64,000 nt of DNA from the NCBI GenBank assembly GCA_951406725.2, contig OX597825.1, positions 8,804,001-8,868,000 of the forward strand, given 5' to 3'. Under the pieces are notes generated by a model. The model searched no databases. It saw only the letters and a list, made by a program, of their open reading frames with translations, and had not been told where the DNA came from. Below, piece after piece: positions 12,131 to 22,202 of this stretch. Positions within the stretch are counted from its first letter, which is position 1. Each line of letters starts with the position of its first letter. The position numbers and the translations under genes are program-made. Origin of the DNA: Octopus vulgaris. Taxonomy: Eukaryota.

Positions 12131-12993
12131 ATAATTATGTCCCACTTTACATATGCTCAATGTACTATGTTTCTAATATCGTTTAGTCACCTATCTAGAG
12201 CTTCTAGTGCACCACGGTGTTATTTTGTTCATTGTTATCCCGACGTGCTAATTTTTCTGTTTTTTTTGTTTACTAGGTGCTGTCCATGTTACAGGATATG
12301 TCATAAAATGTCCGTCAGAATTAACCCTTTAATCGTTCTTTACCACACCTCAAAATATATATCGTACCAGTTTTACTATTCATGTGTAAAGCACTAGTTC
12401 GTATTATCTTTCTAGTTTTGATGTCTAATTATATTATATGTTCCCCTGTCCAGCCTCCTAAGCTAACCGTTGCTACAAACACTGCGTAATGAGGCAGCAT
12501 TTGGGGATATGATTTTATTGACTCTCAGTAACAATGGCGTCCATGCCTATCGACTTAAGCTGAAGTGTTCATTTGCTTCTCTAGATTTAATCACAGTGAC
12601 AATCTATACAATCTATGCAAATACCGAGTTTATTTGTCTGTCTTATTTTTTGTTATAGCAAACGTCATTAGTGAGTTCTTTGACGTTTCATTATCTTGTC
12701 GACAATATTTTCTCGTTTGACTACAAATTATGAACAGTTAACCAGTTCTGTGCACGTTATGACATTCCTGAGCACCACCTGCTTCGTGACTTTGTGAAAG
12801 ATTTTTTCTCGTAGAGTCATCAAAAACCCAAATGCGTGTGATGTTAGTTCTCCGCCCCTCTGCAGATTTTATATTGCATTTACAATTCATAACCAAGTAC
12901 GACGAGCTGGCTTACGGCTGGGATATAAAAACAGCAGATATAGCCTATTAGTGCTTATACAATTATCTATCTATCTATCTATCTATCTATCTA

Positions 12994-14548
12994 ATTCGCG
13001 TGAATGGACATCTATCGAGAACCTTCGACATCGCACGTTCGGTCCGTCAGGGATGCCCCCTCTCGTCGCTTCTATACGTATTGACTCTCGAGCCATTATT
13101 GCGGAAGCTGGCAACCTTGAGAGGCATCCCGCGAGAACTGGGATGCGGGACGAGCGTGTCTGCATACGCGGACGACGTCACCGTCATAGTGTCTAGCCAC
13201 GAGCACATCGAGCAGGTCGGCGAGACATTGAAAAACTACGAAGCGGTGACAGGAGCAAAAATCAACCGGGAAAAGTCAGTGGGCTTGCGACTCGGCACCT
13301 GGAGAAGCAAGCCCATGCCGTCCACCAGCGCCTCCGTCGTGGGACGCTGGACCGACGGCCCGGTTGAGTTGCTCGGGGTCTGGTTTGGTCCGGACCTCCA
13401 AGTGGAGAAGAACTGGAACGAGATAACGAGTAGGGTGGTCACTCTCGCCCTCAATGGGCCGAGAGGAAACTGTCCCTAAAAGGTCGGGCGGAGGTGGCGA
13501 ACACGTACATCGCGTCCGTCATCTACTACCGCCTGACAGTCGTACCTTGTCTCGACCCTACCATCACCAAACTACAACGCATTCTCTTTCGCTTCTTGTG
13601 GAAAGGATGCGTCCCGATGGTCAGGCGATCCATTTGCTGTCAACACCCGTTAAAAGGAGGGCTGGGCATGCCGTGGTTGGTGATGTGCAGACACGCGCTG
13701 AGACTGCGACATCTCTGGCTCTATGTAGACGACGGTGAACAGGTGTGGTCGCCGTTTGTGAAGCACGCTTTCCCGCAGCTCGTCTCCATGACCGAACGGC
13801 AGTCGTGGATCAAAAAGAGGCCGAAGAAGGGCGAATGGCACCGCGAGTGTCGCGTTGCTCTCAAGCAACTCTGCCGTCCTGGGTCGACCTTGAGTGACTT
13901 CAACACAACCAAAGCATTCTATAGGGGTTTAGTGGAGGGGAGGTACGACGACGAGCTCGGGGCGAACCTGGACGTCGACGAGGAGTACCTGACCCGCCTG
14001 TTCAGGACGACTTTCGGGCCAGGGCCCATGGACAACTTCCAGAGATCCCTGGCCTGGCAGTGCTACCGAGAAGCGCTACCCGTTCGGGATAAGCTCTACA
14101 GACACGGCTCGATAAACACGGGGCCGACCTGCCCGAGATGCGGTCAGAGCGACGAAACCGTTCTGCACGCACTCGTGCAGTGTCCAACAATTTCCGACCT
14201 GTGGGCTTGTGTCGAACAACTGCTGTCACGTGTGGGACGAGTCGGTTTATCAGCTGAGTCTATCGTTAATATTGTCACGCCTCCCTCCTTCAAACGGGAA
14301 GGAAGAGCTATTTTCATCATCCTTGTGGCTATGGCGAAAGAATGTATCTGGTGGACGCGTCTGAAAGGATTGGAGACAAACACTTTCCTCTCTGGTCAAT
14401 CTCTCATCAACTTCTTCAAGTACCACTTGAAAAGGAAAGTGAGAGTAGAGAGGCAAGTTTTGTCTAGCGAATGTTTTAAAAAAGATGGGTGAATGTAGCA
14501 AGAATGGCACGTATGAATGACGAAGCCACCTTGAGCATGATCCTATGA
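12994..14548 (+). pseudogene. Frameshifted ORF2 (reverse transcriptase + zinc finger) of the Tx1-like element
   Basis: ORFs 13000-13479 and 13494-14492 join through a 1-bp loss near 13451 (restoring ..QWAERKLSLKGRAEVANTY). A second 1-bp loss in the A-run near 14480, judged against copy 2 (FKKRCVNVARM), moves the stop away from TGA 14546-14548. Confidence 0.85.
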
Positions 14549-14936
14549 ACCCAGAAATTGAAAACAGAGAGTTGCTAATTTGCAAAAAAAAAAAAAAAGA
14601 AATATAACATGTGACTCCATTGACCGAGGTTACCGTGGTCTTTTCCGTAGGCTTTTCTTTCCACGGGTAAACCTCACCTGTCCTCCCCTTTACACTTCAT
14701 ATTGACATTTCTGTGATAACGATCCCTATTGATCAAAATTTTTTTTTTTTCCTCTCCCACTTTTTTTTAACCCCCCCCTTTTTTTTGTCCTCTTTCTCTC
14801 CTTTTACGATCCCTTTTGATCGAAACTCCCCTCCCTTTTTTCTTTTCTTTTTTTTTTTTTTAAACCTTCAAAAGAAAAGCTCTACCTTGTAATTTGTTCT
14901 ATCTGTGTGCAGCCCTGTGTGGCTAATAAAGAAACA
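12994..14936 (+). mobile_element. Tx1/L1-clade non-LTR retrotransposon, 5'-truncated (RT C-half, CCHC finger, 3' UTR)
   Basis: RSVRQGCPLS, YADD, KINREKS, KGGLG motifs and CPRC-x8-H-x4-C finger. Pyrimidine-rich 3' UTR with AATAAA at 14925. (TCTA)n on both sides. Confidence 0.95.
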
Positions 14937-20744: not shown

Positions 20745-21692
20745 AGTTGCTTTATTGGCCACACAGGGCTGCACACAGCTGGGAGAAATTACAAGGTAGA
20801 GCTTTTCTTTTGGGGGATGAAAAAAAAAAGTGGCGTAGGTTTTCGATCAAAAGGGACCGTAACATGGAAAAAAGAAAAAAAGAAACAAAAGAAAAGAAAA
20901 AGAAGAAAAAAGAGGAAAGAAAGGGGAAGAGGAAAAAAAAGATCAATAGGGATCGTGTATCACAGTGTCATATGTACGGTGTAAAGAGGGAAACAGATAA
21001 GGTTTATCCGTGGGAAGAAAAGCCTACGAAAAAGACCACGGTAACCTCGGTCAATATTGTTATATGTTACCACATTTGTTTGCAAGTGGGTAACCCTCTG
21101 TTTTCAATTTCTGGGTTCATAGGATTATGCTCAAGGTGGCTTCGTCATTCATACGTACCATCCTTGCTACATTCACACATCTTTTTTTAAAACATTCGCT
21201 AGACAAAACTTGCCTCTCTACTCTCACTTTCCTTTTCAAGTGGTACTTGAAGAAGTTGATGAGAGATTGACCAGAGAGGAAAGTGTTTGTCTCAAATCCT
21301 TTCAGACGCGTCCACCAGATACATTCTTTCGCCATAGCCACAAGGATGATGAAAATATCTTTTCCTCTCCGTTTGAAGGAAGGAGGCGTGACAATATTGA
21401 CGATAGACTCAGCTGATAAACCGACTTGTCCCACATGTGAACAACTGCTGTCACGTGTGGGACGAGTCGGTTTATCAGCTGAGTCTATCGTCAATATCGT
21501 CACGCCTCCTTTCTTCAAACGGAAAGGTAGAGCTATTTTCATTATCCTTGTGACTATGGTGAAAGAATGTATCTGGTGCACGCGTCTGAAAGGATTGGAG
21601 ACAAACACTTTCCTCTCTGGTCAATATCACATCAATTTCTTCAAGTACTACTTGAAAAGGAAAGTGAGAGTAGAGAGGCAAGTTTTGTCTAG
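20745..21692 (-). mobile_element. Second Tx1-like copy: 3' end on minus strand with a fold-back inverted 5' segment
   Basis: 20745-21440 is the reverse complement of about 14227-14936. 21441-21692 is a plus-strand copy of about 14216-14468. Flanked by AGATAGATA (20736-20744) and long (GATA)n. Confidence 0.93.
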
Positions 21693-22202
21693 ATAGATAG
21701 ATAGATAGATAGATAGATAGATAGATAGATAGGTAGGTAGGTAGGTAGGTAGGTAGATAGACAGACAGACAAACAGATAGATAGGTAGATGGATAGATAG
21801 ATAGATAGATAGATAGATAGATAGATAGATAGATAGATAGATAGATATATAGGTAGGTATATAGATAGATAGGTAGGTATATAGATAGATAGATAGATAG
21901 ATAGATAGATAGATAGATAGATAGATAGATAGGTAGGTAGGTAGGTAGATAGATAGACAAACAGACAGACAGAAAGATAGATAGATAGATAGATAGATAG
22001 ATAGATAGATAGATAGATAGATAGATAGATAGATAGATAGATAGGTAGGTAGGTAGGTAGATAGATAGACAGACAGACAGACATACAGAAAGATAGATAG
22101 ATAGATAGATAGATAGATAGATAGATAGATAGATAGATAGATAGATAGATAGATAGATAGATAGATAGATAGATAGATAGATAGATAGATTGATAGATAG
22201 AT
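21690..22202. repeat. (GATA)n with GGTA/GACA variants
   Basis: Read directly. Confidence 0.97.

Follow-up and report, generated by a model that had tools for sequence, protein, structure and literature searches.

Insertion of a retrotransposon family at same-strand TCTA microsatellites in Octopus vulgaris, and sibling families with other targets

How retrotransposons with an apurinic/apyrimidinic-type (APE) endonuclease target microsatellites is not well understood, according to a review (PMC3812793). Kibi, at (TC)n, and Koshi, at (TTC)n, are Tx1-clade elements of teleost fish (PMC4494074, PMC3812793), crocodilian Tx1 families prefer (TTCC)n or (TTTC)n (PMC4494074), and Togen, from another clade, is found at (TG)n (PMC4640811). 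The APE endonuclease of Tx1L of Xenopus is sequence-specific and its target is a DNA transposon (PMC1950540, PMC4494074). In squamates, the AATAG tails of CR1-L3/Rex elements seed microsatellites, and ATAG shows neither enrichment in nor adjacency to transposable elements (PMC6050309). Here we describe a family of long interspersed nuclear elements (LINEs), the TCTA family, found in a stretch of 64,000 nucleotides of Octopus vulgaris (contig OX597825.1, positions 8,804,001 to 8,868,000; the window) and across the 2.8-Gb genome. We consider it probable (about 0.78) that this is a young L1-group family with two open reading frames (ORFs), likely of the Tx1 clade, which inserts strand-specifically at TATC, mostly within (TCTA)n, likely through nicking of the GATA strand by its own APE endonuclease.

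The family resembles Kibi and Koshi in being an APE-type element without long terminal repeats (non-LTR) in a microsatellite whose sense strand is rich in pyrimidines; its unit is TATC, however, which sets it apart by target description, and flanks of TC only are rare here. It works like Kibi and Koshi and, by target, is neither. With the crocodilian families it shares a tetranucleotide target of a different unit. As in the squamate elements, the LINE 3' end lies beside a simple repeat, but that repeat is a tail in CR1-L3, whereas in the TCTA family it is target, on both sides. A sibling of the TCTA family (family C below) resembles Tx1L in behaviour, its site in another repeat being fixed and the duplication there 17 bp long; unlike Tx1L, with its eleven-residue hairpin loop, the TCTA family has the T189-D202 spacing of human L1. 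Microsatellite targeting by Tx1 elements is already known, and the TATC target is a new variant of it. A LINE targeting TATC or GATA was not found in searches of the open-access literature, although Repbase, Dfam or other sources may list the target; the available parts of PMC3747384, PMC5786205 and PMC9004415 contain nothing on a TATC target. The octopus repeat annotation of 2026 reports 80 L1-Tx1 families, of which 13 have been active recently and account for 421 insertions (PMC13282606), and the element could be among these; the available text parts of that paper do not describe target specificity, and its supplement has no match for target, microsatellite, TATC or GATA.

Same-strand TCTA at the 5' junctions

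Counts of the family in the genome are exact matches to end motifs: a 26-nt motif of the 3' end has 7,901, and a 29-nt motif of the 5' end has 260 (intact 5' ends). The unselected sample comprises 96 of the first 100 listed 3'-end matches, all from one contig (C1) and within its first 18 Mb; 9 of the 96 extended past the fetched DNA, which leaves 87 resolved 5' junctions of truncated copies with a median length of 492 bp. A junction was scored when a perfect TCTA run on the same strand, 8 nt or longer, ended within 10, 25 or 50 nt, and the same rule over positions in 20 fixed 10-kb stretches served as background. Same-strand TCTA was found at 57/87, 65/87 and 70/87 junctions, respectively, against backgrounds of 0.29%, 0.43% and 0.67%, an enrichment of 120-230-fold restricted to a single strand, with 0/87 on the opposite strand. 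TA was present at 2-4/87 junctions (2/87 within 25 nt) and TTA at 0/87; in bases covered, AT repeats exceed AGAT about 8-fold and AAT repeats about 5-fold. Among young copies truncated clear of the variable untranslated region (UTR), with over 470 nt between junction and 3' end, TCTA is present in 21/25, and among 5'-intact copies in 27/30. Nine of the 87 copies are nested in another copy's tail, head-to-tail arrays of TCTA-family copies are observed, and 56 of the 78 non-nested copies carry TCTA at the 5' junction. Insertion targeting of same-strand TCTA is thus well supported.

The initial annotation had proposed this targeting from two copies and had set the tabulation of both flanks as its test; the counts for truncated and intact copies, with none on the opposite strand, bear it out, and the outcome it named as contrary, a majority of non-TCTA 5' flanks, is not what the copies show, the non-nested ones included. 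A preference in more than 20% of flanks is the rule for target specificity in Tx1 families (PMC4494074); it is surpassed at both the 5' junctions (65/87, 75%) and the 3' junctions (87/96).

Two copies of the family and two unoccupied tracts are present in the window:

12964..12993 (+), copy 1, target tract on the 5' side: 7.5 TCTA/TATC units, target DNA and/or 5' duplication copy
12992..14936 (+), copy 1, a 5'-truncated LINE: the final ~1.94 kb of an element ~6.07 kb long (blastn against full-length copies)
12994..14492 (+), ORF2 remnant of copy 1: C-terminal reverse transcriptase (RT; RVT_1, E 4.8e-14) and zf-RVT (E 2.5e-08)
14925..14936 (+), 3' terminus of copy 1: AATAAA at 14925-14930 and GAAACA at 14931-14936, without poly(A)
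14937..15223 (+), 3' target tract of copy 1 (Tandem Repeats Finder): (TATC)n that passes into (TA)n
20736..20744 (-), 3' flank of copy 2: TATCTATCT, with unique DNA beyond
20745-21692 (-), whole of copy 2: forward arm and inverted 5' arm
20745..21440 (-), forward arm of copy 2: last ~0.7 kb, older subfamily of the CAATAAA...ACT type
21435..21692 (+), inverted 5' arm of copy 2: a second copy of 237 bp from the forward arm, at 93% identity
21690..22202 (-), copy 2, target tract on the 5' side: degenerate, 128 units, TCTA in the sense of the element and (TAGA)n as read forward, 92% matches
48933..49015 (-), unoccupied (GATA)n tract, potential target: no family match nearby
53594..53696 (+), unoccupied (TATC)n tract, potential target: no family match nearby

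Copy 1 is 98.3% identical to the natural copy L061 (blastn), and its ORF2 remnant contains a one-base frameshift near 13452. Its 5' end abuts the TATC tract directly, with a 2-nt TA overlap at 12992-12993; the 3' array opens with TATCAATC and becomes TA beyond about 15150. Copy 2 terminates in AATAAA-GCAACT at 20756-20745 (-), followed by TATCTATCT. These flanks agree with those given for both copies in the initial annotation: TATC units before copy 1 and a TATC array without poly(A) after AATAAA-GAAACA, and for copy 2 the long 5' TCTA tract and the short repeat after its terminus. The unoccupied tracts that it listed also exist, with ends refined to those above. The contact of copy 2 with the repeat at its 5' side holds too, but the inverted 237-bp arm had been missed: the 5' junction is on the inverted piece and overlaps the tract by 3 nt (CTA). 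Copy 2 is a single older insertion carrying a 5' inversion, because the differences between its arms are mostly private mutations; on the same ground, separate insertions of different subfamilies were rejected. Textbook twin priming was also rejected, as the arms overlap by ~240 bp. A 5' inversion is seen in L140 as well.

Some junctions show further features. In the 5'-intact copies L081-L110, a short and variable stretch of additional C/T/A-rich bases separates the tract from the element head, and the very short copies L154 and L198 have A-runs at the 5' junction, which may be inverted copies of the U-rich UTR. Elsewhere in the window, a mariner-type transposase fragment is located at 17236-17691 (Transposase_1, E 5.5e-06) and a weak GIY-YIG-like ORF, possibly a Penelope remnant, at 8751-9215 (E 0.009).

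Target DNA at the 3' ends

The 3' flank opens with TATC in 87/96 unselected copies, with AATAAA positioned 6 nt before the junction. Canonical L1 has a 3' poly(A) tail and a TTTT/AA target; in the TCTA family, poly(A) at the terminus has 0 matches genome-wide, and poly(A) within 8 nt after TATC has 1. Two sets of copies show where the 3' repeat comes from. The first consists of copies with (TA)5 directly 3' of the terminus, 75 in the genome, of which 30 were fetched and 25 resolved. TA is found at the 5' junction in 9/25 of them, compared with 2/87 unselected copies (p 1.5e-5), TCTA in 8/25, and both in 4. The (TA)-flanked copies occur in both 3'-end subtypes at 77-100% identity, unlike a single clade.

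The second set was picked for an early-interrupted 3' repeat (60 copies, 46 resolved). The interrupted 3' flank is repeated upstream in 11/46, and in 7/46 the duplications (11, 12, 12, 13, 13, 17 and 32 bp) start at the TATC directly after the terminus; in those seven, the upstream flank abuts the junction or is set off from it by a few bases or by element-like U/A-rich sequence. In L174 and L175 the duplications lie within non-repeat DNA with a single TATCT and without added units. A paralogous stretch of the L174 site (~75% identical) has neither element nor tract; this pair (L158/L174) was the one useful case in a search for empty paralogous sites among the fetched loci, the rest being self-matches or nested copies. 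Based on the 5' junctions of the (TA)n-flanked copies and on the TATC duplications, the 3' repeat is target DNA and not an element tail.

Coding capacity, classification and sibling families

Twenty copies with an open ORF2 were fetched as top matches and so represent the young end of the family. Both ends were recovered in 10 of them, giving the full-length copies that the initial annotation had called for, of 6.07-6.39 kb. Their ORF2 identity is 97.9-100% (median 99.6%), and all RT matches scored (150/150) are at 100% amino acid (aa) identity, while unselected copies reach down to ~67% over the variable UTR. Judged by these identities, the TCTA family is young and recently expanded. ORF2 (1126 aa) contains the Exo_endo_phos (APE), RVT_1 and zf-RVT domains and all the invariant APE residues (N8, E37, D141, N143, D202, H227); the predicted fold of the endonuclease (pLDDT 90.7) matches the LINE-1 endonuclease best (E 1.7e-21, TM 0.80). 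No stable RNA structure was found in the 3'-UTR (z 0.81).

Concerning ORF1, CCHC knuckles and an RRM-like region are typical of Tx1 elements. The TCTA family has two variants of 680 and 766 aa; the zf-CCHC match is weak (E 0.004, short of the cut-off), and Atlas matches of 0.90-0.92 to CCHC proteins, including a ZCCHC3-RBD cluster, serve as a lead only. A link between ZCCHC3 and Tx1 was not found in a literature search or in the available parts of PMC9004415. L075 and L072 have unrelated ORF1 middles (680 vs 766 aa) and share the 5' UTR, the ORF1 ends and ORF2, which suggests module swapping in ORF1.

The family has the features of the L1 group: two ORFs, an ORF2 that runs from an N-terminal APE through RT to a C-terminal zinc motif, 5' ends that are truncated and occasionally inverted, and variable duplications of 11-32 bp. 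Matches to PDB sequences favour L1 ORF2 (E 2e-53) over R2 (4e-20) in a narrow comparison, as only L1 and R2 ORFs were matched. By this domain order and similarity we place it in the L1 group; membership of the Tx1 clade is likely, the tree comparing unnamed homologues only. In this quick, midpoint-rooted tree (19 of 48 homologues) the TCTA family and a TCTA subfamily at 84% ORF2 identity, which likewise ends in TATC, join first, followed by sibling family B with homologue P0001, and then by sibling family C.

The two siblings were found by querying the genome with a distant homologue. Family B (5.87 kb; ORF2 72% identical to that of the TCTA family; 188 exact 3' ends; loci L251-L264 and L271-L300, e.g. 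G000:C1:202329650-202339550) has (TTA)n as its 3' flank in 23/30 copies by a strict rule and in 30/30 by inspection. TTA is present at 6/12 resolved truncated 5' junctions and at 11/11 intact ends seen (8 of 14 loci). The 3' end of family B is homologous to that of the TCTA family, with TCTA at 0/30 3' flanks and 0/12 5' junctions, and its copies form head-to-tail arrays with a period of ~5.87 kb. Family C (58% ORF2 identity; loci L265-L270, e.g. G000:C1:162620310-162630210) occupies one position in a ~360-bp repeat at 6/6 loci, each with a duplication of 17 bp; the repeat, which resembles a Penelope terminal repeat, occurs in tandem and inverted arrangements, and an Rfam search of these loci gave no match.

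A SINE-like (short interspersed element-like) abundant repeat occurs at many loci, in the window at ~40000-40070 (+), ~42980-43050 (+) and ~11900-11970 (-). A segment of ~45 nt in it resembles the 3' end of this lineage, through AATAAA/AGTAAA-GAAATA, and is possibly LINE-derived; TCTA does not follow it.

Proposed mechanism and alternative explanations

Target-primed reverse transcription is established for the non-LTR class. In the TCTA family, the endonuclease would nick near 5'-AGATA/GATAG-3', the exact bond being ambiguous within TATCT. The RNA, running a few bases past AATAAA into the flanking repeat, would base-pair over ~3 nt or more with the DNA end that the nick releases, and reverse transcription primed at the paired repeat would copy no poly(A). 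A second nick at a variable distance would produce the duplication, mostly of 11-17 bp where readable, 32 once, and often apparently 8 bp or less. Target would be left on both sides of each insertion and would invite tandem insertion, which would account for the head-to-tail arrays. We infer that the choice of target is driven by the endonuclease, with short pairing between RNA and primer. Upstream TCTA is favoured even where the flank is (TA)n and pairing to UAUC could reach only 3 nt, which points to recognition by the protein, and downstream TATCT alone is sufficient at L174 and L175; the two together fit protein recognition across the nick.

Several observations weigh against this explanation. 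Of the 87 unselected junctions, 22 miss the 25-nt rule and 17 the 50-nt rule; some of these reflect degenerate tracts or breaks of the alignment within the U-rich UTR, and several are true non-TCTA flanks (e.g. L126, L127, L153, L156 and L170). The sample comes from the first 18 Mb of one contig and includes the nine nested copies, and L124 and L125, which lie 0.6 Mb apart on opposite strands with an identical truncation point and a degenerate TCCA flank, are likely one insertion copied by segmental duplication. A readable duplication is absent in 35/46 informative copies; this is compatible with short duplications (8 bp at most), with mutation since insertion or with junctions left unresolved. 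Finally, the TCTA family and family B differ little in the minor-groove hairpin loop, so this best-studied loop (PMC1950540) fails to account for the difference in target. Two other endonuclease loops are the same in both TCTA subfamilies but not in the TTA sibling (SPCLPRMGG vs SPCRPGAGG), and are candidate target determinants.

The similarity of the hairpin loops would be expected if the target were set mainly by pairing of read-through (UAUC)n RNA at nicks of a loosely specific endonuclease preferring TAT/ATA, and were inherited from the flank. TAT is present in the 3' junctions of both families and most off-target copies start with TAT; the cleavage of a transcript falls downstream of AATAAA, which with the signal 6 nt before the junction would place it in the flanking repeat. 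We nevertheless regard this explanation as unlikely, since 5' TCTA in 8/25 TA-flanked copies indicates a choice beyond pairing, the 75 TA-flanked copies span both subtypes and a wide range of identity and are not clade-like, and the other endonuclease loops follow the target. It is likewise doubtful, at a slightly lower level, that the siblings radiated among (TCTA)n, (TTA)n and a fixed repeat site without a change of hairpin loop between the two microsatellite families, with the target carried largely by read-through RNA as a self-perpetuating memory of the flank.

It is very improbable, and largely refuted, that TCTA is an element-encoded tail which seeds microsatellites, the 5' tracts being neighbours' tails or expanded duplications. 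The 3' tracts are longer than the 5' tracts (median 80 vs 24 nt), nine copies do lie in another copy's tail, and at L173 (G000:C1:3463901-3466935) an 11-bp duplication is followed by 22 perfect TATC units before the element 5' end, where tract growth at or after insertion is possible. However, 5' TCTA in the non-nested copies rejects neighbours' tails as the sole source; in L182, L194, L224 and L246 a long tract on the 5' side goes with one or two units on the 3' side; the type of the 3' repeat tracks that of the 5' repeat; and the unique duplicated targets of L174 and L175 have gained no units. As the initial annotation had argued, a simple tail fails to explain the 5' flanks, given the TATC duplications, the (TA)n-flanked copies and the L174 paralogue. 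Its further suggestion that the element seeds or expands tracts fares less well: of 7 TCTA tracts present in 200 kb of random DNA, 5 lie beside no family copy, so that seeding is unneeded, and growth is suggested mainly by the single locus L173. Random insertion with passive retention in microsatellites, or an assembly artefact, is refuted even for a microsatellite-rich genome by the enrichment for one motif on one strand (65 vs 0) and none for the commoner TA and TTA, by its clarity in the youngest copies (21/25) and by the distinct target of each sibling.

At least 7,900 copies of the TCTA family interrupt and cluster a sizeable share of the GATA-type microsatellites of the octopus genome, which is relevant to marker design and repeat annotation. 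If the target is remembered through read-through RNA, one insertion away from the usual target could give rise to a family with a new one. The main value of the finding is the trio of young siblings: three related families with open ORFs have different targets in one genome, and the protein and RNA determinants of target choice are therefore directly testable.

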